In this document: piece by piece, positions 7,654 through 64,000 of the stretch
Numbering within the stretch: the stretch's first letter is position 1
How the letters are laid out: the number at the start of each line of letters is the position of its first letter
DNA from: a phage
DNA length: 64,000 nucleotides
Reading direction: 5' to 3' (one strand)
Assembly (NCBI GenBank): GCA_026066175.1
Contig: GCA_026066175.1_4721.1
Position numbers and translations under genes: made by a program
Notes under the pieces: model-generated
Seen by the model: the letters and a program-made list of their open reading frames with translations, nothing else
The model's database searches: none
Told to the model about the DNA's origin: nothing

Positions 7654-7738
7654 TTCTATTCCTCAAAATAATGATTGTCTTTTTACGTGACACGATTACA
7701 GTTTTATCAGTTCACAGGTTACTGATTTTCGGTAAGAA

Positions 7739-45948: not shown

Positions 45949-47403
45949 ATGAAAATCAAACAAAGCTGGAAAGACGAATTACTTGCATTAGTTAACAGCA
46001 AAAACAGTTTACAACTGACATTAGACGACGTAAAGTTTGAATTAACCGAACCGGTAAGCGAAGTGCCCGGAACGGTCGTTGTTACAATCAAACCGAACGA
46101 TAATAGTCGCTACTTTAACGAGCAGTCTCTGACCTACGTCCGTCGAGACATTGCTAAAAACTTCACCGGGATTCCGTTACGGGTTATCGTTAAGCAAGAT
46201 ACCGCTGTAAGGGATATCATCAATACGATTGCTGAACGTTACGGATTGGTATTTGACACAACCGTCGACTTCCTCGAATCAGAGCTGAATAAACAAATTA
46301 CTTTCGCAGACACCGGTATTAAAGACGTTACTGTTCCGGTTGCAAACACGTCTTATGTTTGGGCTGGTAATCTTCAGTTCAATATTGCGAACGATACGTT
46401 AAGCTTGATTACTATCATCAAGAAAACCAATCTTACGAATCTGGTTTATCTGGATGGTGTTGAAGCTGACACATCGGGGTCGTTACTGTTAGCCACCACA
46501 GCACTTGTTAACGATAGCGTAAATAAGCCGATGGTTGAAAACGAAGATATCGTCGATGAATTCTACAACGTTCTTAATGCTCTAGCCAAATATGGTGACA
46601 TAACTGGCGATGAATTAAATGCCGCCTTACATGCGTACGATGAAGCAGAAAACAGGAATAAAACCACGGTAATAACTCTTGGTGATATCCAGTGTGTTGC
46701 AACAGAAAAAGACGATTGGGAAATTGGACGTTTACGCGGTCAGATGGTTCTCGCGCTCAAATCCGACAAACAACCTGAGCGCGAGAACACGTTAAGGTTG
46801 TTTACGAATGGCGGTGACGTCTCACTAACGTTAAACACAATGAAAGATATCAGTATCGATTGGGGTGATGGGAATAAAGTAACGTTGGATGCTGAAGAAA
46901 GATACGCGCACCACACATACGCCGACAATAACCAGTACCAAATCGAAATTGTGTCTCGTACGGACCCAGATGTGCTGCGACCAAATTATATTTCTGGGAG
47001 TGAGATAACCGAAGTAATTCACTGGGCTACTACTTCAACAATAGCTCTGAATTTTGTTGGATGCGATAATTTAGCGACTGTTCCAGATGAGATCCCAACT
47101 TCGTGGACAACGTTGGACAGCATGTTTGAAAGTTGTACGAATTTGAATGATCCGTCTATCTCTAACTGGAATACAAGTAACATCACATCAATGAATGGTA
47201 TGTTCGGCGGATGCACTAAATTTAACCAACCTTTAGCTGCCTGGGATGTCAGCTCAGTAACTGACATTGGTGGTATGTTTGTCGGATGTGACAGTTTTAA
47301 CCAAGATTTAAGTGGGTGGCGATTACCGTCAGGAGTAAACCACACCAATTACGATGATGGTGCTTTCTCGTGGCAGACGGAACATAAACCGACATTCCAG
47401 TAA
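45949..47403 (+). CDS. Fibre / receptor-binding-like protein with C-terminal DUF285-type repeats (paralog of 32-1786)
   Basis: N-terminal ~150 aa aligns closely with 32-1786; C-terminal ITSMNGMFGGCTKFNQPLAAWDVSSVTDIGGMFVGCDSFNQDLSGW repeats. Confidence 0.6.
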   Translation: MKIKQSWKDELLALVNSKNSLQLTLDDVKFELTEPVSEVPGTVVVTIKPNDNSRYFNEQSLTYVRRDIAKNFTGIPLRVIVKQDTAVRDIINTIAERYGLVFDTTVDFLESELNKQITFADTGIKDVTVPVANTSYVWAGNLQFNIANDTLSLITIIKKTNLTNLVYLDGVEADTSGSLLLATTALVNDSVNKPMVENEDIVDEFYNVLNALAKYGDITGDELNAALHAYDEAENRNKTTVITLGDIQCVATEKDDWEIGRLRGQMVLALKSDKQPERENTLRLFTNGGDVSLTLNTMKDISIDWGDGNKVTLDAEERYAHHTYADNNQYQIEIVSRTDPDVLRPNYISGSEITEVIHWATTSTIALNFVGCDNLATVPDEIPTSWTTLDSMFESCTNLNDPSISNWNTSNITSMNGMFGGCTKFNQPLAAWDVSSVTDIGGMFVGCDSFNQDLSGWRLPSGVNHTNYDDGAFSWQTEHKPTFQ

Positions 47404-47422
47404 AAAAAAATAGTTAGCATAA

Positions 47423-47456
47423 CTTCCTCCCTACCCATAACGGGCGGGGAGGAAGG
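47423..47456. terminator. Probable bidirectional terminator between convergent genes
   Basis: CTTCCTCCC / GGGAGGAAG; GTTTATG on the plus strand and a T9 run on the minus strand. Confidence 0.55.
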
Positions 47457-47472
47457 TTTATGTGGTTATGAC

Positions 47473-47811
47473 TTAGAACCAGAGTTCTTTCATGAAGTAG
47501 GCTTCCATATCGTAAATAAGCCACTCATCTGGGATTTCTAAAGGATCGTCTTCGGTTAAGGTGAGCATGTGCAGGGCGAACGCACGCTTAATATCTTCCA
47601 ACAGCTTATCATCACCGTAACCTTCGGGTAGTTTACGGTCAACCAGCTGGGTTTGTTTATAGACATCGCGGAACGCTTCAGGATTATGTTTATCCATCGG
47701 GAATTGTTCAGCAGCCTGAACCATCGAAAGCGTCCAGCTTACAACATTGTAACGCTCACCGTTAATTTCACTGAACTTATCATCGATTAAACAGATTTGT
47801 TGTATATTCAT
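47473..47811 (-). CDS. Hypothetical protein
   Basis: 112-aa ORF. Confidence 0.4.
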   Translation of the reverse strand: MNIQQICLIDDKFSEINGERYNVVSWTLSMVQAAEQFPMDKHNPEAFRDVYKQTQLVDRKLPEGYGDDKLLEDIKRAFALHMLTLTEDDPLEIPDEWLIYDMEAYFMKELWF

Positions 47812-48701
47812 ACATTTTCTCCATTCTTATCTTGGCCGCAATCACACTCTTCGGTGTCTTTCTTACTTAAACGTAAGACACCGAGTGCGGCATGCTTGAG
47901 TTCTTGCAAAGCGCTTTTCAGCTGACCTTCTTCATCGAAATCAAAATACTTCTCGTTGTAGCTTAATGCTGGAATCATATTTACGAGAGGTTCGATGGCA
48001 GGCATCAGCATCTCAATCACAACCTTAGGATCAACGAAACGTTCGAACCCTTCAGGAAGTTTACTGGTGATAACTTTGTCGTTCTTGATGAAGAATTTAT
48101 TCTTGAACAGATCGTCAAGGATAGCATTCTCTTCATCGGTACGTTCAGCGTAAGGCCGATCGATCATCTGTACGAAAACACCGTTAAGGGCTTCAGGCAT
48201 TGCGGGGTTCTCACGAAGGTTAAACCCTGCTGGGATTTCGATATCGATCTTCGCCCAGTCGATAACCTGATGGTCTCGCGTATAGATGACGTCAACCTCC
48301 CACGCCAAGCCATCGGTACCTTCTACGGTATAACGTGTTTTAGCTTGACCTTCTGGTGCCATACGCTCGATAGCATCGAACATCTCGACCGGAATTTCCA
48401 CTTCGCTTTCCATGGCATCCCCTGGACCGCGATAAACCTTCGTGGTCATGAAGTACTTCGGTTCTTCGTTGTCGATCTGGATTGCTCGAGCACGTACCTG
48501 GCCTTTAACACCACCCACCGACGTGTTATCGTACAACCACTGGTGTTGCACCATGTGTTCAATTTTCGTGGCGTTCTGACGTAGGATATCTACACCGTCT
48601 TCAGCCAGTTTACCAAAGAAGACCAGCTCACGTTCCTGCTGTGTCTCTCCGCTCAACATCATTAAATTGGCGATTTGTCTCACGCCTTTTACTTTCGACA
48701 T
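47808..48701 (-). CDS. Hypothetical protein
   Basis: 297-aa ORF. Confidence 0.5.
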   Translation of the reverse strand: MSKVKGVRQIANLMMLSGETQQERELVFFGKLAEDGVDILRQNATKIEHMVQHQWLYDNTSVGGVKGQVRARAIQIDNEEPKYFMTTKVYRGPGDAMESEVEIPVEMFDAIERMAPEGQAKTRYTVEGTDGLAWEVDVIYTRDHQVIDWAKIDIEIPAGFNLRENPAMPEALNGVFVQMIDRPYAERTDEENAILDDLFKNKFFIKNDKVITSKLPEGFERFVDPKVVIEMLMPAIEPLVNMIPALSYNEKYFDFDEEGQLKSALQELKHAALGVLRLSKKDTEECDCGQDKNGENV

Positions 48702-48749
48702 ACATGCTCCGGTTACAAGGGCTTCATCGGAAGCCCTTCTGCTTTAATA

Positions 48750-51011
48750 TTACAATTCGAAATCTTCATCGATAACGCGTTGGGTTAGCACCTTGTCGCT
48801 GAAGAACTCCACCTTACGTTGATGGTATTTCCGATGTGCTTCAATCGACGTACACACCAGATACCAGAACGTGGGTGTCATACCCTCGAACTTCCCTTTC
48901 AGCTGACGTAGTCGACCTAACACCTGAATGTTACCAGTTCTCGACCCCATCGCTAACGTCATGAACGTCATCACCAAGTCAGGAAGATCGATTCCTGTAC
49001 CAGCCGATTTTACCGTTGTCACACTGATATCATTATCCAGTAACACCATGAAATCTTCTTCAGCGGTATAAGGACCTATCTCCAACTCAGGGATACGTTC
49101 ACTTAAGTAATGCGATAACGACTTGCACATATCAACGGTTGCACAATACACCAACATCTTCATGCCTTCCTGATATTGGTTCATGAAACCTTTGATAATA
49201 ACCGTATAGATAAAGTTGAAATAGGCGAGTTTGAGTTGCTTATTCTTCATGATAGACTGTTCGAATACCGTGTGAGAATAAGAACCTCCAAAGCCTTTGT
49301 ATCGGACTTTATCCGTACTGCGTAGTCGATACGTCACCGCATTTACCGCGATGTATTTCTTGTATTCACATTTCGCATAACGTGCTTCTTTCGGATACAT
49401 CAAATACAGCATCCGCTCGATGAACGGATCGTCAGACACCGCCGTTGCCGACAGATAAATGATTTCCGGAATATTCGCGTAACACTTCACTTTGAACAAG
49501 AAATGCAGAGCTTCGTGACATTCATCGTGGATTAACAATCCAATGCCTGTTTTCTCCCAGAACTCGACTGGATGGAAAACATAAGGTGCGACACAGTTGT
49601 TCTTTTCATAATCGGTTATATAACGCTGAAACATGTTCAGTGAGAATAACGCAATTTTGAAATCCAACTCACCTTGTTCTACCAACGTCTGAAATTCCAA
49701 CATGCTGTAACGAGGAATGTCGGGATGCGGTGGGTCAGACTGGGCTGTACCACGTATCTCGATAACATCACCTGGTTCCATACCGAAGAAACTTAGCAGT
49801 GAGCTACGCCATCCAGGCATGTACCTCGGTGACAGAATGATGCCCGTCCGTACACCACGTCGGAAGGTGATCTCCTGCGACATTGCGGTGTTGTGCGTGA
49901 CGATATGGTCTTTAATAACATAAAGGCTTTCGTCGTTGTCCACCGTGATGCAACGTGCCTTCGCTTTCACCGTCGGCACGATGCCGCCAATCGCTAAACC
50001 AGGAAGCGTGTTAACGGGAAGATCATCTGGAATCTCAATGCCGTCAGGAATAAGCTTAAGCAAATCGGAATGGTAAATTAATGTCTCCATCGTGTAACTA
50101 TTGATGGGGCATTTATACGCGATTCCCCCTAACCGATAAGCCAACTCCCAGACCTCGGTCATTATCTGCGAATCGGTGGTTCTGACCGCAAGGTGAGCCC
50201 ACCCTTCTTCAACACGCAGCACGCAACGATCTTTGATGAGTTCTCTGAAACGATCAAGACCCACGAGTTCTTTCGGTTCGTAAAGTCGGATTCTTACCGG
50301 ACGAGATCGTGACGATCTGTCATTAAGACGTTCCATGATTTCACTCGTGCTGAGCACCTTGTCAGGATCCGTGCATTGCCAGAGATGATCACCACACGCT
50401 TCAACCATTCGTCCATCTTCAAAGAAGACAGCGTAAAGCTGAATATCGTCATGATCAAAGATAGCAGTTACGTTCGTCGGTAAACCATCCGCGCCGATGA
50501 CCTCATCACCCACCTGGAGCTCACCAATCGGCTTCCAACCGCTTGGAACCTTAACGGGTGTATGGAGAGCCAATGCTTTCCCAGACCCCGTGCCTGCGGT
50601 GTTTAGGCTCATTCTGAAAGGGGTATCCTTACCCCCATCCATGTACTCCAACCATTCTTGCTGATCTTCACGCCACGGAAACTTCCAGTTCTTCACAAAC
50701 TCCACTTCCTTACCTGGAACCGGATCGTGGTAAACGATTTCCAACCACTCCTTTCGAATTCCTCGAGAAAAGATAAAATCCAAAAACGACTTCAGCTGTT
50801 CACGAAGTAAGTAGACCTCGCTATAATCGCTTCTTGCTGCGGCGTAGGTGTTGATGGTATCGGTGACCATTCTCCGTGTACGAGGGTCGCGTCGTTTCCG
50901 TAGATGCAAACAACGGTCTCGAAGGTAATGGCCAATCAAATGGGCAAATCGAAGTCCGTATCCGCTCAGCTTCATGCCATGCGAGAAGACGTCGATACGA
51001 GCTAACTTCAT
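48750..51011 (-). CDS. SF2 (DExH) helicase carrying an intein-like insertion in motif I
   Basis: Host motifs NTAGTGSGK | T (AGTGSGKT after excision), LLIHDECHEA, YLSATA, SAGTGIDLPDLV; about 229 aa inserted between K and T. Confidence 0.65.
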   Translation of the reverse strand: MKLARIDVFSHGMKLSGYGLRFAHLIGHYLRDRCLHLRKRRDPRTRRMVTDTINTYAAARSDYSEVYLLREQLKSFLDFIFSRGIRKEWLEIVYHDPVPGKEVEFVKNWKFPWREDQQEWLEYMDGGKDTPFRMSLNTAGTGSGKALALHTPVKVPSGWKPIGELQVGDEVIGADGLPTNVTAIFDHDDIQLYAVFFEDGRMVEACGDHLWQCTDPDKVLSTSEIMERLNDRSSRSRPVRIRLYEPKELVGLDRFRELIKDRCVLRVEEGWAHLAVRTTDSQIMTEVWELAYRLGGIAYKCPINSYTMETLIYHSDLLKLIPDGIEIPDDLPVNTLPGLAIGGIVPTVKAKARCITVDNDESLYVIKDHIVTHNTAMSQEITFRRGVRTGIILSPRYMPGWRSSLLSFFGMEPGDVIEIRGTAQSDPPHPDIPRYSMLEFQTLVEQGELDFKIALFSLNMFQRYITDYEKNNCVAPYVFHPVEFWEKTGIGLLIHDECHEALHFLFKVKCYANIPEIIYLSATAVSDDPFIERMLYLMYPKEARYAKCEYKKYIAVNAVTYRLRSTDKVRYKGFGGSYSHTVFEQSIMKNKQLKLAYFNFIYTVIIKGFMNQYQEGMKMLVYCATVDMCKSLSHYLSERIPELEIGPYTAEEDFMVLLDNDISVTTVKSAGTGIDLPDLVMTFMTLAMGSRTGNIQVLGRLRQLKGKFEGMTPTFWYLVCTSIEAHRKYHQRKVEFFSDKVLTQRVIDEDFEL
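49890..50576 (-). mobile_element. Intein-like element inside helicase motif I (protein residues ~146-374)
   Basis: Begins ALALHTPVKVPSGWKPIGELQVGDEV and ends CITVDNDESLYVIKDHIVTHN followed by Thr; removing it restores AGTGSGKT. Confidence 0.55.
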
Positions 51012-53047
51012 AACGTGATTACATCCTCCGGTTTAGGTTCTTTACGCGGTAGAAGCATGTAGTCGATCGGATGATCTGGCTTCATGGTTGGGATATAACT
51101 GTTCGGGTTTTGGAACGCATCCAGTTGCTCTTGGTGAGCGAACTTCATACTCAAGGAGCGCATGTTCATGTTCTTCTTGAAGGTACTGAAATAACGAGTC
51201 GTTCCCTGTTTCGGCATGCGGTAATCTTTCGTGTGTGGTGAACGAATCATACTCGCGTAGAGAATAACGTCCAGATGCGATAGATTCATTCGTAAACGTT
51301 GCGCACACAGACGATGCCAATAATACAGTACGTTGGCTACTTCTTCTGGTGTCGCTTCATCTTCCGAAAGGAATCCTGCACTGAACGAACCTTTCCCGAA
51401 TTTGAATTCACGTTCGATTTCTTTTGCGTATTCCATCATGTTTTTATGGATGAGTGGCATCTGGAATAGCGTCCGTGAATTGTCCCAATGTTTCAAGTCG
51501 AAGATCACAATCCCGTCTGCTGTTACTTCCCAGCTATGGCGTTTGAGATAACGGATAAACGCTTTGCTTGGTACAACAGGACGTCCACAGAAATCGAAAT
51601 TGACTTTGAGTTTACGATAGCTCTCATCTTTCCTGTCGTAAATCTCCATATCGCAAAGCGTCATGTTGAACAGACGTTGCGGGATAAGCGAACTGATCTC
51701 TTCCGCTTCAGCTACATCGTACAACATGTTCGCCAGACCGAGTTTCATCTTAATCAGCACGTGTTTGCCTTTCAGCTCACGGGCTAATTTGATGTCGTTC
51801 ATGTTCTGGCTGTAACGAAGGATATGTTGATATTCCGGCGGGATTGGTGACGTAGACACGGTGGACGAACCATCGTGATGTTTGGTCGAAAGAATGTTCT
51901 GGGTAACCTGTTGTGAACCTGTACGTGCTGAGCAGTCTCCGATGTTGTCGGTCAATGCAAAGTTATGGCTTAATTCACCATAGCACGTTGCACAGACACC
52001 AGCAGGATCAGAATGATGACAGTAACAAACGGAACGCATGTTCACAATGGTACCGATCAATTCTTTCATGTGAGGCTGTATCGACAACAGCGAACCATCT
52101 TCACGTAAGATGAATCGACCGTGGAAACCTTTAAGATCGGTTTCATCACGTATCGGCATCGGAATGGTTTCTCTGCTTCCACAATCACCAGGATGCAGAC
52201 GTTGTACAACCGCCGTTGCGATTTGCAGCTCACGTCCGAAATATTCTGACTTCTTAATCTGCTCCTTGTTGAACAACAAAGATTTTGCCGCAGAGCGACT
52301 TTCTTTTAAGCTGTCCGGAAGCGAGATCAAGCCTGCTGCATACGAGCGCATCACTGGGTCACGGAAGATCTCCGAGTTGATATCGGTTAAGAAACCACGC
52401 ATCCCAATACACTGCAATACCTGTCCGATTGACACGTGTTCGGTTCTTACCGCACGTGCGATCGGGTTGGCATGCAATGTTTTATCGGTACTTAAAACTT
52501 TTGTTAGTTTCTTGTATGCGCTCTCAATACCTTCGCGGGTGGGTTCCGCTTCAGCGATGATTTTCTTCACTTCGGGATGTACGGTAATCTGATAAAAATC
52601 ATCCGCACAGATGGTCGTTACGTATTCCTCCAACGCATACGTAAAGAAGTTATAAACGTGGTTAAACATATCGAACAACGCTTTCCAGAGAACCTCACGA
52701 TTCTCTTGCGGATACGCATACATGCATTGACGATAGGCTGCGCTTTGTAATGCAACGGAAGAACCTGCCGTAAACTTGCGTTTATCCACCAGGTTCTCTT
52801 TCGTTAACGGTGTCTCAGGATACATGCGATGTAAAGACCAATGCATGTAGCTAAAGAAAATGCGTCGCGCACGCAATTCATGAACACCATCGTCCATCTC
52901 GATATACACACGGTCATTAGGCTGTGCCCACTCGAACACCTCATCAACCGGCCAATGCATAAGCTCTCGCGCCCGTACACGGCGTTTCGTGGTGATCGTC
53001 TGTACTGTATTCATTATTTTTACTTTCCGATTAAGTGGTTTTATCAT
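51008..53047 (-). CDS. Large hypothetical protein with a Cys cluster
   Basis: 679-aa ORF, ATGA-coupled to the helicase gene; CYCHHSDPAGVCATCYG; no family recognised. Confidence 0.5.
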   Translation of the reverse strand: MIKPLNRKVKIMNTVQTITTKRRVRARELMHWPVDEVFEWAQPNDRVYIEMDDGVHELRARRIFFSYMHWSLHRMYPETPLTKENLVDKRKFTAGSSVALQSAAYRQCMYAYPQENREVLWKALFDMFNHVYNFFTYALEEYVTTICADDFYQITVHPEVKKIIAEAEPTREGIESAYKKLTKVLSTDKTLHANPIARAVRTEHVSIGQVLQCIGMRGFLTDINSEIFRDPVMRSYAAGLISLPDSLKESRSAAKSLLFNKEQIKKSEYFGRELQIATAVVQRLHPGDCGSRETIPMPIRDETDLKGFHGRFILREDGSLLSIQPHMKELIGTIVNMRSVCYCHHSDPAGVCATCYGELSHNFALTDNIGDCSARTGSQQVTQNILSTKHHDGSSTVSTSPIPPEYQHILRYSQNMNDIKLARELKGKHVLIKMKLGLANMLYDVAEAEEISSLIPQRLFNMTLCDMEIYDRKDESYRKLKVNFDFCGRPVVPSKAFIRYLKRHSWEVTADGIVIFDLKHWDNSRTLFQMPLIHKNMMEYAKEIEREFKFGKGSFSAGFLSEDEATPEEVANVLYYWHRLCAQRLRMNLSHLDVILYASMIRSPHTKDYRMPKQGTTRYFSTFKKNMNMRSLSMKFAHQEQLDAFQNPNSYIPTMKPDHPIDYMLLPRKEPKPEDVITL

Positions 53048-53122
53048 ACAGTGTATTCATTCCGTTGGAATTTACTCCGGGAGTCCCTTCCCTTAGGTTA
53101 TATAGGTGTTAATATATCTCGG

Positions 53123-53608
53123 TTATCCTGCTTTCTTCTGAAGGCTATAAGGATCCATCGCATCGGAGCGGTCGGCAACGATGGTAAGAATGAAGCCTTT
53201 TATCTGTCTCACTTCGGTAACCCGGAGTCCCCTATCGTTACGATAAACATTTTCTTCGCCGACCAGTTTTGGTCGAATAACATAAACCCCATCAACGAAC
53301 GGAAACGTTGAATACGGATAAATACCAATACGAATAATATTCGGATGATCACCTCGAGGGTCACGTCCAAACACATCAACTCTACCGTAAATCGTGCCGT
53401 CCGCACCTTCCACTTCAATAAGGTCGTTGCGAATATCCTGAAACAGTTGTTCTAAGGTCTCTACGGGATATGTATAAGCGACGCCTAATGCAACATCCTC
53501 AATGGTCTTAACGCTAAATCCGTTAAGCCAAATAATCCGATCATCTGTCCATGTTTCTTCATACGCTGTTAATCCGTCGCCGTATATGTTGGCGTGTGCT
53601 ATCTCCAT
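53123..53608 (-). CDS. Hypothetical protein
   Basis: 161-aa ORF. Confidence 0.45.
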   Translation of the reverse strand: MEIAHANIYGDGLTAYEETWTDDRIIWLNGFSVKTIEDVALGVAYTYPVETLEQLFQDIRNDLIEVEGADGTIYGRVDVFGRDPRGDHPNIIRIGIYPYSTFPFVDGVYVIRPKLVGEENVYRNDRGLRVTEVRQIKGFILTIVADRSDAMDPYSLQKKAG

Positions 53609-53720
53609 AATCTCATTTCCTCTTCTCTGTTAGGATAAATGACATGCTGGATAACGTTGCCTTTGCATATATTGCTTTATTTCCGTCAGAAATAACGGAA
53701 AATAAAAACAACGGCATAAA

Positions 53721-53752
53721 CCCCTCCCACCTCCACATGGGAGAGGGAGGGT
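53721..53752 (-). terminator. GC-rich stem-loop with TTTATGCC tail
   Basis: CCCTCCCACCTCC / GGGAGAGGGAGGG (imperfect); minus-strand tail GTTTATGCCG. Confidence 0.45.
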
Positions 53753-53757
53753 GTATG

Positions 53758-54120
53758 TTATTCTACATTATCTTCTACGGCTTCGGATTCATCCGCTTCT
53801 GCGAAGCTTTCCTGAACCGCAGTGGTATCCCAGTTCGCTGCGTAATCAGCCATGGCTTCGCGCAGCGCTTCTTCACCCGCATCACCAGCCAGGTCAAGTA
53901 CAACCAACCCTTGTGCGACGTTCTGCGCTACGGTATCGATAACCGTTGCATCCTCTTCAAAGCTACGTACCGGTTCAATGGTACCAACATCAACAGCGTA
54001 GTTCGTGGTTGCGGTAAGGACAGCAACCTGTAATGCGTTGCTGTCTTCGTCATGAAGTGCTGCTTCAATACCGATTGGACGGGCCAGTTCTTGCAGTGTC
54101 AATTTACGAATTAAGTTCAT
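53758..54120 (-). CDS. Highly acidic small protein
   Basis: 120 aa, Asp/Glu-rich throughout (e.g. EADESEAVEDNVE at the C-terminus). Confidence 0.45.
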   Translation of the reverse strand: MNLIRKLTLQELARPIGIEAALHDEDSNALQVAVLTATTNYAVDVGTIEPVRSFEEDATVIDTVAQNVAQGLVVLDLAGDAGEEALREAMADYAANWDTTAVQESFAEADESEAVEDNVE

Positions 54121-54143
54121 TATGTCTTTTCCTCAGGTGAATG

Positions 54144-54494
54144 TTAGCAATCGTTTAAAACTTTTTCGATACGATGGTTGACAAGCTCATTGAACGACTC
54201 TTCTGCTTGTTCGATAATTTCATCAACGTCAATATCTAATCGTTGGGGTTGGATGACGTGCTCTTTCATGGTTTCCAGCCAGTATTCGGCTTTAATCATG
54301 ACGTTAACAACATGTTCAACCTGACTGCGTAGGTCGATAATCTGGCAATCAGGATTATTAATATCGATGACGTGTCCGTGGTGGTTGATAAACCCAAGCT
54401 TATTCGATGCTTTTACGGCATCGCGAGTAAGTTCTTGCAGGATTAACGCATTTACGTAATTCACTGCGACGGAACGATTTTCTTTATCACTCAT
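54144..54494 (-). CDS. Hypothetical protein
   Basis: Start moved to MSDKENRS (AAGAGGA upstream). Confidence 0.4.
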   Translation of the reverse strand: MSDKENRSVAVNYVNALILQELTRDAVKASNKLGFINHHGHVIDINNPDCQIIDLRSQVEHVVNVMIKAEYWLETMKEHVIQPQRLDIDVDEIIEQAEESFNELVNHRIEKVLNDC

Positions 54495-54612
54495 ACCAGG
54501 GATCCTCTTTAAGTGTTCACATTCTAGTGTTAAGCAGTTAAAATAAACCGTTCCTTTAATCAGCATAAGCATCCTCCTCCCACCGCACGGGCAGGAGGAG
54601 GCGTAATATGCG

Positions 54613-55023
54613 TCAGAAAGGAAGACGATCTTTATATTCTAACAACGTATCTTCGAAGCAGGCTGCTAGCTCAGACTGCAATTCGATTCGACCTTGTTCA
54701 CCAAACAACTCCAACAGCATCAATCCACGCGCTGTTTTCGTTGCGACCTCTTCACAAATACAAAGGTCGTGTGCAACGTCATCACCAACATCCTTACGTA
54801 ACTGTGCTGCAATGGGCTTAAGATTGCCGTCCTCGTCGTATTCGTCACGAAACGCATCATAAGCCGCATCAATGTTCGCCGTCCGCGTCAATCCTTCGGA
54901 ATCTCGCCAGTCTCGATAGAGTCCAAGCAGACGATTGTGATTCTTCGTCTTGACGTTAGGTGCTGGAAGATTGCGCAATAGATGCGGAGTAATCAATGCA
55001 ATCACGCTGTCTGAATGATCCAT
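54613..55023 (-). CDS. Hypothetical protein
   Basis: Start moved to MDHSDSVIAL (GAGGT upstream). Confidence 0.4.
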   Translation of the reverse strand: MDHSDSVIALITPHLLRNLPAPNVKTKNHNRLLGLYRDWRDSEGLTRTANIDAAYDAFRDEYDEDGNLKPIAAQLRKDVGDDVAHDLCICEEVATKTARGLMLLELFGEQGRIELQSELAACFEDTLLEYKDRLPF

Positions 55024-55033
55024 ATCTACCTCG

Positions 55034-57202
55034 TTAGCTTTCGCAATCATCCGCATCGATGATCTGACCACCAGCAACATTCAACTGGTGATACAATATC
55101 CTCAACGCACGGTTACCCCCAATGGGATACTTCTCGAAGTTGGTCGCAATCGGAATCGCAGAGGGTTTGTCGGTTGCATAGATGCTTTCCGTGATGCTAT
55201 CCACCTGTTTCGGGTTGTTCGCGTAATCCATGAATACGCTTGCGAACCATCCACCGGCGAAGGCGGTGACTTCGCGATGTTCAGATTCACCACAATAACG
55301 TGTTGGTTGCTCTTTACCAGGAGAACTGTACTTATCACTGTTGCTGAGTTTCGACGGCAAACCATGTGCTTGCAGTTTAGGAATACCTACCGCAGACCAA
55401 TCGTTTGCTGTCTTCTCCAACATCATGATGTACGTATCACCAATCGCAATATCGTTCTTGGTGGTTCGCCATTGACCAGAACGACCACGATAGCGTACAG
55501 GGCCTTTCTTCAACGGGAACTCTCGAATCAGGTTCTCCATACGCTCCGAGCCTGCTGCGATACTGTCTGTCGGGATATAGACTTCTGTACCATGGCGTTG
55601 TACGTAACGTAGATGGTCCCATTTATCGTCATCTGTGATACAATGTTTCTCAACAACCTGCTCCACAAACTCAGGACTAACGATATAGTAGTAACGCATC
55701 AATGTGTTCCATGCGGTTTCCAGATCGCCTGCATCCATTACCGGTTTCAGTTCACGCATGATCTGGTCGCCAACACCATTGATATACGGTGCGTTAACAC
55801 GACTTAAACTCATCCTTTTAATTACCGTGCTGTCGTCGAACATAAAGTCCGCAACATTCCCCCATTGGTCTACGGGCATCTCGTCATCTTCCATGATATC
55901 CGTTACGACGAATTTATCACCCGCCATACCGGTAAATTTAAATCCGATACCAGGGACCACATCGTAGGTATACGTGATGGTCACACGCCAGTCATCAAGA
56001 TTCTCCTTACGATAATCACGGGTCGGCAACACATGACGTAGCTGACCGTTCGGATTGCGAATGTCAATACCATGCTCAGCATCAGCGAGGTTCAACCACC
56101 ACATCACCGTCTGATGATGTCTGATGGGTGTACCAGCACGTTCACGTTCGTATTTACGCACCGCATCCTGAATACGGGTATACAGCAGACCGATGGCGTT
56201 TTCATATTTCAGGAATTGACGATACGGAGGACGCATCTTCTCTTCCATCATAATCGCACGCTCGCGGGCTTGACATCCAGAACGACGATGTCGATCGCTG
56301 ACAACATCGATATCCGTTACACGCGCATTCGGCTCAGCGTAAGTGAGATCATCGTAAACATAATCCACACGCTGAAGATTGCACGTCATCATGTCAACGA
56401 CGCTGAGGATAGGATCGATTTCGCGTGTTGCTGCAAGTAACCCATCTTTACGAATACGCTCACCGTTCTCGGGTATTGCTTGATATACCTCGTCATCACC
56501 GTAGAGATTGATTGGGTATCGCGATTTACCTGATGTAATTGTTCGCTTCTCAATACCGGTACTGGTGAAATGCTTCAATACACCACGACGAGCAACACCA
56601 CCATCTTCAATACACTGGTAGAAGCTACCGAAACACACCTTGCAATCGCGACCGTAACCCCACTCGCGTGTTTCTTGATTGATCGCTGGGCTTTCCATCA
56701 AACGAGAATATCGCGGTACAATCTGGCCTCGACGAAGGGAATGGAACAAGTTGGTTGGTCGAAAACGGAAACCGTACTGCTGATGCATGATGTGATGCTC
56801 AGGCACTTCAAGCAAGCGTAGCTCGTGACGGTTACCATCCTCTTGGTTTTCATACAGCACGTAATGCATCGTGTTTGTTTTGATGCTGTTTGCTGTATGT
56901 CCTGGTTGAAACCGCGGAATGATATCTATGATGCGAGATTCAACTGGAAACTCTACTGACCAAGTGTTCTGTCCGTACTGGTATTCAATCCCCGTCGTTA
57001 ATCGGGACGGCTTCGCATCTTTGATAACCAACGCTTGGCTAAGATGTCCACCAAACATCGCAGCGCGCTGTGCTGAGTTATAATGCAATAGCCCGTTAAG
57101 TCCAGTCCCTACACCCGTATACTCCTGTTTAATGGGAATGATTTTACCTTCAGCGATTGCCTGCTTCACAGATTCATAAAGAGGTTTTTCTTTATAATGC
57201 AT
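55034..57202 (-). CDS. Large hypothetical protein
   Basis: Start moved to MHYKEKPLYE (AGGAAG upstream); no family recognised. Confidence 0.5.
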   Translation of the reverse strand: MHYKEKPLYESVKQAIAEGKIIPIKQEYTGVGTGLNGLLHYNSAQRAAMFGGHLSQALVIKDAKPSRLTTGIEYQYGQNTWSVEFPVESRIIDIIPRFQPGHTANSIKTNTMHYVLYENQEDGNRHELRLLEVPEHHIMHQQYGFRFRPTNLFHSLRRGQIVPRYSRLMESPAINQETREWGYGRDCKVCFGSFYQCIEDGGVARRGVLKHFTSTGIEKRTITSGKSRYPINLYGDDEVYQAIPENGERIRKDGLLAATREIDPILSVVDMMTCNLQRVDYVYDDLTYAEPNARVTDIDVVSDRHRRSGCQARERAIMMEEKMRPPYRQFLKYENAIGLLYTRIQDAVRKYERERAGTPIRHHQTVMWWLNLADAEHGIDIRNPNGQLRHVLPTRDYRKENLDDWRVTITYTYDVVPGIGFKFTGMAGDKFVVTDIMEDDEMPVDQWGNVADFMFDDSTVIKRMSLSRVNAPYINGVGDQIMRELKPVMDAGDLETAWNTLMRYYYIVSPEFVEQVVEKHCITDDDKWDHLRYVQRHGTEVYIPTDSIAAGSERMENLIREFPLKKGPVRYRGRSGQWRTTKNDIAIGDTYIMMLEKTANDWSAVGIPKLQAHGLPSKLSNSDKYSSPGKEQPTRYCGESEHREVTAFAGGWFASVFMDYANNPKQVDSITESIYATDKPSAIPIATNFEKYPIGGNRALRILYHQLNVAGGQIIDADDCES

Positions 57203-57233
57203 AGGACTTCCTATTATCGAATTGAGGTACGTC

Positions 57234-57587
57234 ATGTCTAATACGCCCCTGAACGACTTTCTTAAGACAAACCCCGATGACCTCATCCACAACCTTGATT
57301 TCAGGAACGTTGTTGAGATGCATCTGGAATATTTCAAAAATGCCGGTTTGGTTTCTACGATAGACATACCACCCGAACGCGCCTACGAATTCGATGGTAA
57401 CTTTTATGGATTATGTCGGGTTATGCTTGGCGAAGGCAGTGAACCTATGCACTGGGTTACCCTAAGAATCAACGGTTATCGTGATCCTACGGAATACACC
57501 GCCGATGTCCTAACGATGAAGATTGTCGATTCAAGCGCCATCAACACGTTAAAACAGCAATATCGCACAATCCACTACAGCGCTTAA
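57234..57587 (+). CDS. Hypothetical protein
   Basis: Start at MSNTPLNDFL with GAGGT upstream; followed by a plus-oriented terminator hairpin. Confidence 0.45.
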   Translation: MSNTPLNDFLKTNPDDLIHNLDFRNVVEMHLEYFKNAGLVSTIDIPPERAYEFDGNFYGLCRVMLGEGSEPMHWVTLRINGYRDPTEYTADVLTMKIVDSSAINTLKQQYRTIHYSA

Positions 57588-57592
57588 GATAA

Positions 57593-57630
57593 CCCTCCCA
57601 CGGCGTAAAGCGGCGGGAGGGCATTTATGC
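57593..57630 (+). terminator. Terminator after plus-strand gene 57234-57587
   Basis: CCCTCCC...GGGAGGG followed by CATTTATGCCG. Confidence 0.5.
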
Positions 57631-57653
57631 CGTCGTTCGATGCTTTTAGCGCA

Positions 57654-58934
57654 TCAGAAGCGATTTACAGGACGACCTGTCCACGCGTTCAGGATAGTGT
57701 TACGTTCCATCTCAGCGCGACGACGCAGCCCGTTCGGCGTCTGCGGTGCTGGTGGCATCCCCCATCCTGCAGGTTGCGCACCCATGCCTGGCCAAGCCCC
57801 AGTATTGAACATCGTACCGTTACGTTCCGCTACACGGTTCATCAGCATATCGAACGTACTATTACCTCCTGGTTGGTTAGCACCTCCTTCCCACGGATTA
57901 GGTTGAACCGGCGCGGTCTTACCTAACAGGTTATCGATGACATTACCTGATGCAGTAGGACGTGGTTGCATACCTTCATGTGCGGCGGCTGATGGATTTG
58001 GCTTAACCGTAGGTTGCGGTCGACTGTTGAGCGTTACACCCATGTTGTATTTCGCTGGAGGAATCTGTCCGCGATGCTGATTAATCGGTTCAAAGTCCTC
58101 AACCCAGGTAACGTCGCAATACCCATTCTCTTTACCGTCGTACTTATCACCAAACAGTTTGATGAGGTTATTCAACGGTTCCATCAGCTTAGCGAAGCTG
58201 TGGATAAGGCAATCGAAATACGGTGCATGCGGATCGCTTGACCCAGCGTTATACGTTTCACTGACTTCGCTTGCGTGCGGGATAACATACTCAACCAGGT
58301 TTCTCAGCATGTTAAGATCTTTCTTGGAGATCTCAACACCACACCAGTACGTTTTCTTATCTTTCGTGCTGATGTGTTCTTCTTCCATGAACGGGAAAGT
58401 AACAACGGCAACACGGGTCATCTTCTTACCCATGTAGGTTGCACCAGTACGACGAAGATAGATTTTAGACAGCGTATACGGTGTATCACGTTTCAGCCAA
58501 ACGGTAACCAGTTTACCCAGGGTCGTTAACGTCTTATCGCTGGCGTCCGCAAGGATGTTGAAGAACTCTTTCTGCTTCGGACCGAAACGTTTTGCTTCTT
58601 TCGGGTTGATCGCGGTTTCAACCATCCAAATCAGCATGGAGCACAGCGTAGCGTTAAAACGGACAACCATCGCACGACGCAGGAACTGCAGCACTTCCGA
58701 TTCGCCGTTCATCACGTCTTCACTTAACGGATGGAACAGCACACGTTCGGCAAGATGGCTTCCTGTACGCACTTCGGTAACCGGCATCAGCAACGGCATG
58801 CTTTCCACGGTAGCGGCAACTGCAACAACCTTACCATCACCATCTGTAAAGCGGTACTCTAACTCATGAGCATCGTTTTCAAAATAGTTAACGCTTTGTA
58901 GCGCTTTACGATAAGCTTCAATAAGCTTCGACAT
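57654..58934 (-). CDS. Hypothetical protein with Gly/Pro/Asn-rich C-terminal region
   Basis: 426-aa ORF; low-complexity C-terminal third. Confidence 0.5.
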   Translation of the reverse strand: MSKLIEAYRKALQSVNYFENDAHELEYRFTDGDGKVVAVAATVESMPLLMPVTEVRTGSHLAERVLFHPLSEDVMNGESEVLQFLRRAMVVRFNATLCSMLIWMVETAINPKEAKRFGPKQKEFFNILADASDKTLTTLGKLVTVWLKRDTPYTLSKIYLRRTGATYMGKKMTRVAVVTFPFMEEEHISTKDKKTYWCGVEISKKDLNMLRNLVEYVIPHASEVSETYNAGSSDPHAPYFDCLIHSFAKLMEPLNNLIKLFGDKYDGKENGYCDVTWVEDFEPINQHRGQIPPAKYNMGVTLNSRPQPTVKPNPSAAAHEGMQPRPTASGNVIDNLLGKTAPVQPNPWEGGANQPGGNSTFDMLMNRVAERNGTMFNTGAWPGMGAQPAGWGMPPAPQTPNGLRRRAEMERNTILNAWTGRPVNRF

Positions 58935-58962
58935 ATTGTATTTCCTTTTCTTTTACGACAAT

Positions 58963-58983
58963 GGTCCCCCATGACAGGGGACC
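58963..58983 (-). terminator. Stem-loop
   Basis: GGTCCCC CATGACA GGGGACC. Confidence 0.4.
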
Positions 58984-58989
58984 TATGGA

Positions 58990-60576
58990 TTAGAAGTTGC
59001 CTTTGGTGGTTACAGCATCAACCAGGTTGAACAAATCGATGCTCAGCTTATACACTTCCTGCTGGCTACGGTTAAGCAGCGGGCTATAAGCAGAAGGGTT
59101 GATGTTCGGCATGGTGTATGGAATCGGGGCAGAGCCATCAACGCTGATCTTGAACTGGCTATCCAGGAACAGGTTAATTGCGCCACTTACCATAACCGCA
59201 TTCGGGTTGTTCCCTAACATCGACGGTAAGATGTTGATGATCATATCGGAACGCATCTGCTCAGCAGCACGGTTACAGTCGTAGCCTTTAATGAACGGTA
59301 CCGCATCGGTAACCGCAACCGCCCACTGGCCTGGCATGATGCCCAGCTCTGGGTGACCGTGGTTGTCTGCAATGAAACGGAACGATTCCAGCATGCGATA
59401 CGTCATCGCCGCAGGCATCATGGACGCCAGCGAGGAGCAATAGATCGTTGGATAATCGATCACATCCCAGCTTTGGCTATCCGTTGGCATCCAACCGAAT
59501 TCGGTGGTTGCTGATGTACCGCGACGGGCTTCCACATACGGGAACAGCGTCAGGACATCACGGATATGTTCACCGAAATGCCGTTTCATTTCACCCCAGC
59601 TCAGGCTACCGTTAAACGAAAAGCCCTCATCACGCATGATCTCATTGAACATCGTGTGCGCAACCAGCGGTTGTTCACGGACGTATTGAGAAGCCTCAAC
59701 GTAAACATCCTCGTTGTTGGCCTCGCCGGGATGAGAACCTAGCTCGAAGGTCTGACGAACGGTACCCACGCTATCGAACGCTTTCTTCAGATAGATGGTT
59801 GGGATATTTGTATCGATGCTGGCGGGTTTTACCTTCTCTGTTGCAAAACACAGCGCAGCATCCATACCACGAACAACCGGTTCCTGTTGTGGTCGGTATG
59901 TTGAGTGGTTCACGACGTCCGCATACATCGGGTCGAACTGTTGCATCACGTTCTGCATCGAAGGATCCATGAACTGATTGTCCATACCACCATTACCGAG
60001 CCAACGTGCAGTCGATGCGTAGGTCAGCGTATCCTGCACACGGGTACTGAACTGAACGTCGTTGTTCATTGGGTCATACGCCCCGGTAAGCAGATGGATA
60101 GCATCTTGAGGAGCTGCACGTACAACCTGTTTACCGAACATATCAACGGTGGTTGTTTCCAGCACGATAATGACGTTGGTGAAGAAGAACTGCAATTCGT
60201 TCGGTAGATCTTGTACGCGGGTTGTGTATGCATCCAACGGAACAGAATAATCGGTGTATCCAGACACGTAATGAACACGTTTGCTTCCTGGAGCTAACGC
60301 AACCGATTCTTCTGCTGCCATCATGAAATGGAAACGACGGGTACCCCAACCATTAGCAATCTCTGAAACCCCTTCCGGCTGTGCGGTTTGCTCTAACATC
60401 CCGGCAGCCAGTTTATTGATCGCTGATGGTGTTGTCGCGGTGCCGAATCGCGTTGTGTTAATAAACTCTTCCAGGCTATGCATGCTGTCAGCGTGGAACT
60501 GAATTGGACGACGGTGCACATTGTTGTATGGTGCGGTTTCAACCATCAGGATTTCACGAACATTCATCGATACCAT
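58990..60576 (-). CDS. Hypothetical protein
   Basis: 528-aa ORF. Confidence 0.5.
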   Translation of the reverse strand: MVSMNVREILMVETAPYNNVHRRPIQFHADSMHSLEEFINTTRFGTATTPSAINKLAAGMLEQTAQPEGVSEIANGWGTRRFHFMMAAEESVALAPGSKRVHYVSGYTDYSVPLDAYTTRVQDLPNELQFFFTNVIIVLETTTVDMFGKQVVRAAPQDAIHLLTGAYDPMNNDVQFSTRVQDTLTYASTARWLGNGGMDNQFMDPSMQNVMQQFDPMYADVVNHSTYRPQQEPVVRGMDAALCFATEKVKPASIDTNIPTIYLKKAFDSVGTVRQTFELGSHPGEANNEDVYVEASQYVREQPLVAHTMFNEIMRDEGFSFNGSLSWGEMKRHFGEHIRDVLTLFPYVEARRGTSATTEFGWMPTDSQSWDVIDYPTIYCSSLASMMPAAMTYRMLESFRFIADNHGHPELGIMPGQWAVAVTDAVPFIKGYDCNRAAEQMRSDMIINILPSMLGNNPNAVMVSGAINLFLDSQFKISVDGSAPIPYTMPNINPSAYSPLLNRSQQEVYKLSIDLFNLVDAVTTKGNF

Positions 60577-60577
60577 T

Positions 60578-62164: not shown

Positions 62165-62218
62165 AACAACCTCTTTTCGCGGTTCCCTGTTAAACGTTTT
62201 CTATAACGCCATCAAGGA

Positions 62219-62250
62219 GGTAATATAAGCGTGAATAATTTTGGATTCCT
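62219..62250 (-). promoter_or_regulatory. Promoter-like motif, copy 3 (degenerate)
   Basis: AGGAATCCAAAATTATTCACGCTTATATTACC on the minus strand, ~55 nt upstream of start 62164. Confidence 0.35.
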
Positions 62251-62366
62251 GCTGAGTCATCGCTCAGCATGCAAGGCATCCCGCCGAAGCGAGACACCTT
62301 GCACTAACGGAAAATACTCGCGTTACCTTCTGAATCGAAGACCCAGAATGCGATACTAAAGCATCA

Positions 62367-63155: not shown

Positions 63156-63229
63156 TTTCAGCCTCGTTACGTAGTGTGAATCAATTTCTGACTTCAGATG
63201 ATAGTCAATATTAGTTAAAAATTACAGCC

Positions 63230-63931: not shown

Positions 63932-64000
63932 CGGCGTCTCCGGCTGTTGCTGTATTGCCGTGAGTGTTACCGACGTCCCTACCGATAACGGATAATCACC

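Follow-up and report, generated by a model that had tools for sequence, protein, structure and literature searches.

Two large proteins of a Goslar-like jumbo phage assigned as C-terminal-half beta' and beta subunits of the phage-nucleus RNA polymerase

Two large genes in the 64,000-nucleotide stretch of phage DNA analysed here (the window) almost certainly encode parts of the non-virion multisubunit RNA polymerase (nvRNAP) of a Goslar-like jumbo phage, a member of the nucleus-forming Chimalliviridae; one is the C-terminal half of beta', the other that of beta. The enzyme to which they belong is already known as the phiKZ/Goslar-type split RNA polymerase used inside the phage nucleus. The assignment is supported by computed orthology and synteny, by the conservation of motifs and by purifying selection, and no finding speaks against it. 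The two genes are:

51008–53014, minus strand: nvRNAP beta' C-terminal-half subunit (beta'C), 668 aa, orthologue of phiKZ gp74 and Goslar gp165
55034–57202, minus strand: nvRNAP beta C-terminal-half subunit (beta-C), 722 aa, orthologue of phiKZ gp71-73 and Goslar gp171, uninterrupted (no intron)

An initial annotation had placed ORFs at 51008–53047 (679 aa) and 55034–57202 on the minus strand, and both are found there, as is the ATGA overlap of the first with the helicase ORF at 48750–51011, which follows from the coordinates. The lengths need some adjustment. The mechanical ORF at 51008–53047 does have 679 codons, but its product is likely 668 aa, starting at the second Met (53014), because the frame of the first 11 codons is not kept in Goslar (indel) and the Goslar gp165 annotation begins at that Met. 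The 723 aa given for the other ORF are 722 aa plus the stop. The beta-C ORF could be extended to 57367 (777 aa), with the extension overlapping a conserved gene on the opposite strand; the 57202 start agrees with Goslar gp171.

Neither protein is an orphan lacking a recognisable family, as had been proposed. Beta'C falls in PHROG 3015 (E=9e-170) and beta-C in PHROG 3295 (E=5e-181), both 'RNA polymerase beta subunit' families in PHROGs, and the PDB matches are to phiKZ gp74 for beta'C (7OGP_D, E=1e-85, query residues 22–665) and to phiKZ gp71-73 for beta-C (7OGP_C, E=4e-86). Homologues are detected by tblastn in more than 300 phage genomes, with one matching place per genome. Amino acid identity is 96.6% between beta'C and Goslar gp165 and 99.4% between beta-C and Goslar gp171; relative to phiKZ, beta'C matches gp74 over its full length (E=5e-94, 29.7% identity), and beta-C matches gp71 (E=6e-42) and gp73 (E=3e-39). 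Weaker matches are to the AR9 nvRNAP and to bacterial beta' (733–944) and beta (1063–1241), where identity is about 24–28% over short stretches. The orphan appearance arises because Pfam nearly misses both proteins: there is no Pfam Rpb1 match for beta'C, and beta-C has one sub-threshold match to Rpb2_6 (E=0.005, 16.4 bits against a 23.4-bit cut-off).

Residues 206–398 of beta'C match E. coli beta' 733–944, a region that includes the bridge helix, zinc site and trigger loop. The functional elements of this subunit are placed as follows:

52208–52321, minus strand: bridge helix, ORF residues 243–280, LPDSLKESRSAAKSLLFNKEQIKKSEYFGRELQIATAV, mapping to the phiKZ gp74 bridge-helix residues L242–Y279 (PMC8287921)
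51983–52183, minus strand: beta' zinc-binding site, C289 (DCGS) with C343, C352 and C355, mapping to phiKZ gp74 and E. coli ligands
51860–51949, minus strand: trigger-loop N-terminal arm, residues 367–396, with ILSTKHHDGSS aligned to E. coli TMRTFHIGGAA
51440–51856, minus strand: trigger-loop insertion domain (as defined in PMC7618050), residues ~398–536, equivalent by pairwise alignment to phiKZ gp74 396–533

The Cys cluster singled out in the initial annotation, CYCHHSDPAGVCATCYG, pairs with E. coli beta' VSCDTDFGVCAHCYG, which contains the Zn ligands C888, C895 and C898; the fourth ligand is the upstream DCGS cysteine, equivalent to E. coli C814. In phiKZ gp74, the residues corresponding to C289, C343, C352 and C355 are C288, C341, C350 and C353, and all four cysteines are invariant in a 7-phage alignment. 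Beta'C C341 is not a conserved ligand, and Goslar has Asn there. The bridge-helix residues pair with a segment within the E. coli 733–944 alignment that we take to hold the bacterial bridge helix. ESRS and EY.NR of this helix are kept in 7 phages (family alignment), and LSTKH of the trigger-loop arm is kept family-wide.

Residues 420–601 of beta-C match E. coli beta 1063–1241, and the elements located in this subunit are:

55913–55939, minus strand: active-centre loop KFTGMAGDK with lysines K422 and K430, mapping to phiKZ K386 and K394
56603–56608, minus strand: E199-D200 of the double-psi beta-barrel (IEDGG), Asp invariant and Glu in 5 of 7 phages (family alignment)
55280–55291, minus strand: C-terminal GESE motif (RYCGESE), GE.E in 6 of 7 phages

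The two phiKZ lysines touch nascent RNA, and K422 and K430 are invariant in 7 phages. KFTGMAGDK pairs with E. coli beta DKMAGRHGNK, and GFKFTGMAGDKFVV, containing both conserved lysines, pairs with E. coli beta GDKMAGRHGNKGVI. The peptide quoted earlier as an acidic stretch, TGMAGDKFVVTDIMEDDEMP, is present like the Cys cluster and contains K430, with K422 just upstream of it. The reported lack of multisubunit RNAP motifs is thus contradicted by the very peptides that had been quoted, one being the beta' zinc site and the other including the second beta lysine. We presume that IEDGG is the equivalent of the E. coli GYNFEDS motif. RYCGESE is likely equivalent to bacterial beta GQRFGEME, judging from its position downstream of the E. 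coli-aligned stretch.

Could the proteins be decaying or catalytically dead RNAP paralogues, reused for example as scaffolds? Their divergence from bacterial beta and beta' is extreme, the Pfam scores are sub-threshold and substitutions flank the catalytic lysines. The E. coli beta RHGNKG loop reads MAGDKF in beta-C, the Gly after the second lysine being replaced by Phe in the Goslar lineage only, and the residue opposite E. coli beta H1237 in the alignment is apparently not His. However, every residue to which the phiKZ structures point as functional is kept, and each genome holds a single nvRNAP-matching copy, which leaves no other set to take over; msRNAP subunits are, moreover, core genes of the Chimalliviridae. 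Codon differences from Goslar are 171 synonymous and 4 non-synonymous for beta-C and 189 and 23 for beta'C. Both genes are under strong purifying selection, and they are genuine genes, as first annotated, rather than chance ORFs. Loss of function is very unlikely on this evidence.

The window is collinear with the genome of the nucleus-forming Escherichia jumbo phage Goslar at 75–89% nucleotide identity (about 88% across the RNAP-gene locus), and from these values the source phage is probably a separate species within Goslar's genus. Gene order is as in phiKZ gp67–gp75 (ChmC, fifth nvRNAP subunit, PicA, gp70-like, beta-C, beta'-C, helicase), and identical synteny, fifth subunit and downstream helicase included, is found in four other chimalliviruses. 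The genes surrounding the two RNAP genes are:

62367–63155, minus strand: ChmC-like RNA-binding protein, 99.2% identity to Goslar gp176, PHROG 3284 (E=1e-35)
60578–62164, minus strand: fifth nvRNAP subunit, orthologue of phiKZ gp68 and Goslar gp175, sigma-like, assembly and promoter-binding
58990–60576, minus strand: PicA-like nuclear protein-import factor (phiKZ gp69, Goslar gp174), a context gene of the conserved block
57654–58934, minus strand: phiKZ gp70-like protein (BLASTP against phiKZ gp70 E=1e-23; 95.5% identity to Goslar gp173)
53123–55023, minus strand: five small acidic ORFs, homologues of Goslar gp166-gp170, between the beta-C and beta'-C genes
48750–51011, minus strand: phiKZ gp75-like SF2 helicase, ATGA-coupled to beta'C (BLASTP against phiKZ gp75 E=7e-43)

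ChmC is gp176 in Goslar, and the conserved block encodes it together with nvRNAP subunits. The fifth subunit matches PDB chains 7OGP_B and 9RJS_B (E=5e-28, query residues 23–518), phiKZ gp68 (BLASTP E=1e-32) and Goslar gp175 (99.6% identity), which bears the nvRNAP label in the Goslar mass spectrometry table. The PicA-like protein matches phiKZ gp69 (BLASTP E=1e-14) and is 86% identical to Goslar gp174, the PicA of that phage (bioRxiv 10.1101/2024.03.21.585822).

Two features of the locus lie beside the RNAP genes. The five small ORFs share 87–95% amino acid identity with Goslar gp166-170 (87–90% for the four larger) and have no PHROG or Pfam match; the block does not occur between the beta-C and beta'-C genes of phiKZ, Eowyn, PCH45, Ea35-70 or EC001 and constitutes a Goslar-lineage insertion separating them. 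The helicase holds a 229-aa intein (junctions GSGK/ALALHT...IVTHN/TAMSQ) that is absent from Goslar gp164, to which the BLASTP match is split into residues 1–146 and 374–753.

Chimalliviruses carry two paralogous split RNAPs, and RefSeq uses the one name 'RNA polymerase beta subunit' for both, Goslar gp165 and gp171 included. The two proteins might instead be subunits of the virion-packaged vRNAP, the enzyme injected along with the DNA to transcribe early genes, but this is highly improbable and effectively refuted. The best, near full-length matches are to phiKZ nvRNAP chains, whereas the phiKZ vRNAP paralogue gp80 gives beta'C only an 85-aa local match (E=4e-4, compared with E=5e-94 for full-length gp74). 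The genes also lie within the conserved ChmC/gp68/PicA/helicase block, the site of the phiKZ nvRNAP genes. Mass spectrometry of Goslar virions assigns the vRNAP to gp78, gp196, gp205, gp207 and gp210, and lists gp165, gp171 and gp175 as 'nvRNAP' at about 0–0.9 copies per virion, less than one copy for gp165 and gp171.

The same virion data bear on a structural role in capsid, portal or tail, with the genes lying near replication genes by chance. Big unannotated jumbo-phage proteins are frequently structural, a generality that the sequences do not support here, and Goslar gp168, homologue of one of the small ORFs, is abundant in virions. However, gp165 and gp171 are near absent from them, RNAP catalytic and structural motifs are conserved, and homology runs end to end with RNAP chains of solved structures. 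A structural role has a negligible probability and is refuted by the solved-chain homology and the virion mass spectrometry. Instead of the capsid, portal or tail fold that the initial annotation had set against an enzymatic role, the homology is to an RNAP family solved by cryo-EM. Its suggestion of enzymes that are 'possibly very divergent replication or transcription components' was right, both proteins being subunits of a split multisubunit RNAP that has diverged strongly.

By homology to the phiKZ nvRNAP, beta'C and beta-C would join the N-terminal halves of both subunits, that of beta' bearing the DFDGD Mg site. The genes for these N-terminal halves, DFDGD motif included, lie outside the window, and we infer the complete enzyme from Goslar. 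The sigma-like subunit encoded at 60578–62164 would complete a five-polypeptide enzyme without alpha or omega. In this assembly the Cys4 zinc site, the bridge helix and a trigger loop containing the phage-type insertion domain would come from the beta'-C half. The beta-C half would provide the flap, the C-terminal clamp elements and the second double-psi beta-barrel, whose two lysines would hold the nascent RNA. The nuclear location of the enzyme, its assembly, its timing and its activity are proposed by analogy with the phiKZ, RAY and Goslar literature. The early genes for the nvRNAP subunits would be transcribed by the virion-packaged RNAP, and the nvRNAP would then pass by import into the phage nucleus, which chimallin encloses, and could there transcribe middle and late genes with no need for the host polymerase. 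In Erwinia phage RAY, nvRNAP beta subunit 2, beta' subunit 2 and the helicase encoded next to them are found in the phage nucleus, and these two subunits appear to be the counterparts of the window proteins, by name and adjacent gene order.

Goslar gp165 and gp171 match the window genes in length, order, strand, neighbours and the five-small-ORF block between them, and the phages differ in the helicase, which carries an intein in the window but not in Goslar. Homology to phiKZ gp74 and gp71-73 (PDB 7OGP/7OGR/8QUE/9RJS) extends end to end at only about 28–30% identity, and the shared elements are the Cys4 zinc site, the bridge helix, the two lysines that contact RNA and the trigger loop, insertion domain included. 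The phiKZ beta-C gene, however, is broken at the second-lysine codon by an intervening sequence containing gp72, the PhiPA3 counterpart of which is described as a self-splicing intron, whereas the window gene is continuous. Likewise, the phiKZ beta-C and beta'-C genes adjoin, whereas ~2 kb with five small ORFs separates them in the window. The nvRNAP of Bacillus phage AR9 (PDB 7S00/7UM0) has the same split beta/beta' architecture (E=5e-14 for beta'C and 3e-17 for beta-C) but is much more distant, in a phage that encodes no chimallin, and uses a different promoter-recognition subunit (gp226). Bacterial rpoC and rpoB encode homologous catalytic-core elements, but the phage-type enzyme splits each into two genes, lacks alpha and omega and has a trigger-loop insertion unrelated to E. 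coli SI3. The phiKZ vRNAP (gp178, gp149, gp180, gp80) and the Goslar vRNAP are paralogous split msRNAPs of the same phages, packaged in the virion and responsible for early transcription.

Two large reverse-strand open reading frames (ORFs) from the six-frame ORF list are considered here:

51008..53047, minus strand: beta'-C ORF in its long version, 679 aa
55034..57202, minus strand: beta-C ORF, 722 aa plus stop

The initial annotation described both as orphans with no recognisable family, a description overturned by PHROGs and PDB sequence matches to RNA polymerase (RNAP) subunits at E <= 1e-85. The protein we call beta'-C matches PHROG 3015 (phrog_3015, 'RNA polymerase beta subunit'; E=9e-170), with residues 22-669 on profile positions 3-652 of 653; beta-C matches PHROG 3295 (phrog_3295, with the same label; E=5e-181), with residues 24-719 on positions 10-693 of 698. 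The best PDB matches are chains of 7OGP, the cryo-EM structure of the phiKZ non-virion RNAP (nvRNAP): chain D, gp74, for beta'-C (E=1e-85, residues 22-665 vs 4-671) and chain C, gp71-73, for beta-C (E=4e-86, in two stretches). By BLASTP, beta'-C aligns over its full length with phiKZ gp74 (E=5e-94), and beta-C matches gp71 (E=6e-42) and gp73 (E=3e-39). The phiKZ enzyme is composed of gp55 and gp74 (beta'-like), gp123 and gp71-73 (beta-like) and gp68 (PMC8287921), and because the counterparts of the window proteins are gp74 and gp71-73, we identify them as the C-terminal halves of beta' and beta. Judged by sequence, matches of nearly full length (E~1e-85) to the chains of a cryo-EM structure settle the fold of both. 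Amino acid identity to Escherichia phage vB_EcoM_Goslar is 96.6% for beta'-C (gp165) and 99.4% for beta-C (gp171), and RefSeq labels both Goslar proteins 'RNA polymerase beta subunit'. The RNAP assignment is already known: the phiKZ nvRNAP subunits to which these proteins are orthologous have been characterised by structure and biochemistry, and the annotated Goslar proteins are near-identical to them.

More distant relatives fall in the same family. Chains of the Bacillus phage AR9 nvRNAP are matched at E=5e-14 (beta'-C) and E=3e-17 (beta-C) in the PDB, and phmmer and BLASTP recognise bacterial beta and beta' as homologues (E down to 7e-5 and 3e-7), with beta'-C aligning to beta' 733-944 and beta-C to beta 1063-1241. 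Homologues were found by tblastn in 311 (beta'-C) and 307 (beta-C) phage records, all from large phages encoding multisubunit RNAPs; Goslar aside, identity is <=32% among the matches listed (all in the <60% band). Pfam is far less informative: for beta-C, RNA_pol_Rpb2_6 scores below the gathering threshold (16.4 bits vs a 23.4-bit cut-off, E=0.005), and the scan of beta'-C returned noise, with no RNA_pol_Rpb1 domain match. This near-miss explains the impression of orphan genes, but the near-absence of Pfam matches is no evidence of orphan status. Split, divergent polymerases escape motif checks by eye and Pfam alone, and a PHROGs or PDB sequence search detects them immediately.

The initial annotation had also found no multisubunit RNAP signature motif. 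Alignment to E. coli beta' and beta contradicts this, as both a zinc site and the active-centre lysines can be placed. The Cys cluster noted in the 679-aa ORF is indeed present and is the beta' zinc site by alignment to the phiKZ and E. coli ligands: the phiKZ counterparts of C289 (in DCGS), C343, C352 and C355 are C288, C341, C350 and C353, and the E. coli ones are C814, C888, C895 and C898. All sequences of a seven-phage alignment keep these four cysteines; C341 of beta'-C is not conserved (Asn in Goslar). Residues 243-280 map onto phiKZ L242-Y279 as the predicted bridge helix, and residues 367-396 onto phiKZ T365-V383 as a putative trigger-loop arm, in which ILSTKHHDG aligns to E. coli TMRTFHIGG. 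A phage-type trigger-loop insertion domain would occupy residues ~398-536 (phiKZ 396-533). The bridge-helix and trigger-loop motifs are kept in the seven-phage alignment.

In beta-C, the active-centre stretch GFKFTGMAGDKFVV aligns to E. coli GDKMAGRHGNKGVI. K422 and K430 have the same spacing as phiKZ K386 and K394, which belong to the double-psi beta-barrel and contact the nascent RNA; all seven phages have both, and their E. coli equivalents are the lysines of DKMAGRHGNK. The peptide singled out earlier as an acidic stretch is present; K430 lies inside it and K422 three residues upstream. The family likewise keeps the double-psi beta-barrel ED and a C-terminal GESE motif. We also note that the second lysine is followed by Phe here (F431, 55910-55912) and in Goslar (GDKF), where bacterial beta (GNKG) and the five remaining phage lineages of the comparison (G.KG) have Gly. 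This Gly-to-Phe change beside a catalytic lysine might be a sign that the active-centre loop has co-adapted in the Goslar lineage.

The window gene for beta-C is continuous, whereas the phiKZ reading frame is broken exactly at the codon of the second lysine (K394) by a gp72-containing stretch. In phiKZ (6837-8086), the RefSeq gp71 coding sequence runs on into the interrupting sequence and ends in Asn instead of Lys; the reconstructed spliced product has 700 aa, the length of PDB chain 7OGP_C.

Comparison with Goslar bears on both the reality and the extent of the genes. A megablast search with 51008-57202 returned Goslar as the only match (87.9% identity over 100% of the query), and collinearity with Goslar extends over the whole window, at 75-89% nucleotide identity. 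Codon differences are mostly synonymous (171 synonymous vs 4 non-synonymous for beta-C, with 167 of the 178 base differences at third positions; 189 vs 23 for beta'-C), which argues that both are real genes. Dead RNAP paralogues would be the alternative for such divergent sequences; purifying selection, retention of functional residues and presence in single copy lead us to reject it in favor of functional subunits.

With regard to gene starts, 679 aa holds only as the size of a mechanical ORF, and the 723 aa given for the second is in fact 722 aa plus the stop. In Goslar, an indel upstream of the second ATG means that the initial 11 codons of the 679-aa ORF are not kept in frame, and we reject the long version on this ground. 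Because Goslar gp165 starts at the equivalent of Met12, the beta'-C product is most likely 668 aa (51008..53014). For beta-C, the longest ORF version reaches 57367 (777 aa). The start at 57202 is preceded by AGGAAG and gives a product of the same length as Goslar gp171, and a conserved opposite-strand gene lies beyond it at 57234-57587; for these reasons we reject 777 aa in favor of 722 aa. Both peptides quoted in the initial annotation are found in the two ORFs, and the ATGA coupling it reported between the 679-aa ORF and the helicase is borne out by the coordinates, with the ATG of the helicase ORF 48750..51011 (51011-51009) overlapping the beta'-C TGA (51010-51008).

Two questions concern which enzyme these subunits belong to and whether they could instead be virion components. 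Phages of this type also carry a virion RNAP (vRNAP), but the phiKZ virion beta'C paralogue gp80 gives beta'-C only an 85-aa local match (E=4e-4), compared with the full-length match to gp74, and tblastn with each protein hits essentially a single place in each genome. For the Goslar virion, a 2026 preprint assigns the vRNAP five other subunits (gp78, gp196, gp205, gp207 and gp210), and its Table S4 labels gp165, gp171 and gp175 'nvRNAP', with an estimated 0.17-0.40, 0 and 0.39-0.92 copies per virion, respectively. We therefore reject a vRNAP assignment, given the marginal gp80 match, the different Goslar genes and the presence of gp165 and gp171 at under one copy per virion; beta-C and beta'-C belong to the nvRNAP set, the virion-content basis being their Goslar orthologues. 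The initial annotation had named a capsid, portal or tail fold as the outcome that would speak against its view. Neither protein has a capsid, portal or tail match in PHROGs or Pfam, and the matches are to RNAP chains instead; together with the low copy number of the Goslar orthologues, this excludes virion structural proteins. Its guess of divergent transcription components has proved apt, given the homology to phiKZ nvRNAP chains. As a separate observation, Goslar gp188, which lies outside the window and is a homologue of phiKZ gp55, the nvRNAP beta' N-half (Prichard et al.), is listed at roughly 87-205 copies per virion in the virion mass spectrometry table. This high count may be a gene-numbering issue or true packaging of one nvRNAP subunit.

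The two genes lie in the following block:

62367-63155, minus strand: ChmC-like, 99.2% to Goslar gp176
60578-62164, minus strand: fifth nvRNAP subunit, gp68-like, 7OGP_B E=5e-28, 99.6% to Goslar gp175
58990-60576, minus strand: PicA-like, Goslar gp174
57654-58934, minus strand: gp70-like, phiKZ gp70 E=1e-23
55034-57202, minus strand: beta-C, phiKZ gp71-73 / Goslar gp171
53123-55023, minus strand: five small ORFs, Goslar gp166-gp170
51008-53014, minus strand: beta'-C, phiKZ gp74 / Goslar gp165
48750-51011, minus strand: SF2 helicase, phiKZ gp75 E=7e-43

The order ChmC, gp68, PicA, gp70, beta-C, beta'-C, helicase is that of phiKZ gp67-gp75, and the stretch running from the gp68-like gene through the helicase recurs in Eowyn, PCH45, Ea35-70 and EC001, judged by gene order and size in annotation tables; conservation of the block is also reported in the ChmC paper. 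A position in this block likewise favours the nvRNAP over the vRNAP set for the two subunits. By collinear Goslar annotation, the rest of the window holds tail proteins, ligase, thymidylate synthase and many small ORFs, with no further RNAP subunits. Scans of 47000-64000 gave 23 sigma-70 promoters vs 27.4 expected in shuffles and 18 intrinsic terminators vs 16 expected. At shuffle expectation such scans say nothing on operon structure; these phages in any event rely on polymerases of their own.

Several features of the neighbouring genes deserve mention. The small plus-strand gene at 57234-57587, a homologue of Goslar gp172 (95.7% identity; phrog_3455, E=1e-20), is divergent to beta-C and begins only 31 bp from the start codon of the latter, so that the beta-C promoter must be inside or beyond this small gene; Eowyn, PCH45 and EC001 have a small opposite-strand gene at this position. 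The PicA-like protein is only 86% identical to Goslar gp174, compared with 99.2-99.6% for the gp175-like, ChmC-like and beta-C proteins (99.6%, 99.2% and 99.4%), and its relatively fast evolution fits the published idea of fast-evolving import selectivity. The helicase carries a 229-aa intein (about 49890-50575) directly after the Walker A lysine, with the junction AGTGSGK/ALALHT...IVTHN/TAMSQ vs AGTGSGK/TAMSQ in Goslar gp164, which lacks it; the first residue of the intein is Ala, its last two are His-Asn, and Thr occupies the +1 position. The orthologous EC001 helicase has 914 aa and may contain an insertion as well.

The five small acidic ORFs, spanning ~2 kb, are 87-95% identical in amino acid sequence to their Goslar counterparts. 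In phiKZ, Eowyn, PCH45, Ea35-70 and EC001 the genes for beta-C and beta'-C directly adjoin or overlap each other, and they are separated in the Goslar lineage alone. The four larger small ORFs, all but the 31-aa gp167-like one, were scanned and have no PHROG or Pfam match, nothing matching the small ORFs was found in the syntenic loci of the five other phages, and tblastn of the gp168-like ORF (53758-54120) matched Goslar only. This ORF and the gp170-like one (54613-55023) are paralogues (Smith-Waterman z=9, a score reached in 0 of 300 shuffles), and Goslar gp168 is reported at >200 copies per virion. That the block encodes lineage-specific transcription accessory factors, or proteins that are injected and act when the vRNAP hands over to the nvRNAP, with F431 reflecting active-centre co-adaptation, is a speculative idea that we regard as very improbable. 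The mildly unusual features are only this block, the Gly-to-Phe change, the helicase intein and the relatively fast-evolving PicA.

Two apparent large orphans thus become core genes of nucleus-forming jumbo phages, with phiKZ orthologues that are structurally solved and Goslar ones that are annotated. Goslar itself belongs to the Chimalliviridae and is a jumbo phage that forms a nucleus, and reading the window as a Goslar-like chimallivirus provides a frame for the ChmC/PicA/nvRNAP block, the helicase intein and the tail genes.

By homology to phiKZ, beta-C and beta'-C would join the beta' N-half (DFDGD), the beta N-half and the sigma-like gp68 homologue in a five-polypeptide polymerase lacking alpha and omega subunits. 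The gp68-like subunit is the only one of these partners encoded inside the window, both N-half genes being outside. The vRNAP would transcribe early genes coding for nvRNAP subunits, and the nvRNAP would then enter the chimallin shell and transcribe middle and late genes there. Activity and localisation of the nvRNAP are known for phiKZ and Erwinia phage RAY only. In RAY, the phage nucleus is the site of localisation of nvRNAP beta subunit 2, beta' subunit 2 and the helicase encoded next to them; from their names and the adjacency of their genes, the two subunits appear to correspond to beta-C and beta'-C. An active, rifampicin-resistant nvRNAP imported into the phage nucleus is predicted, by the same homology, for the window phage.
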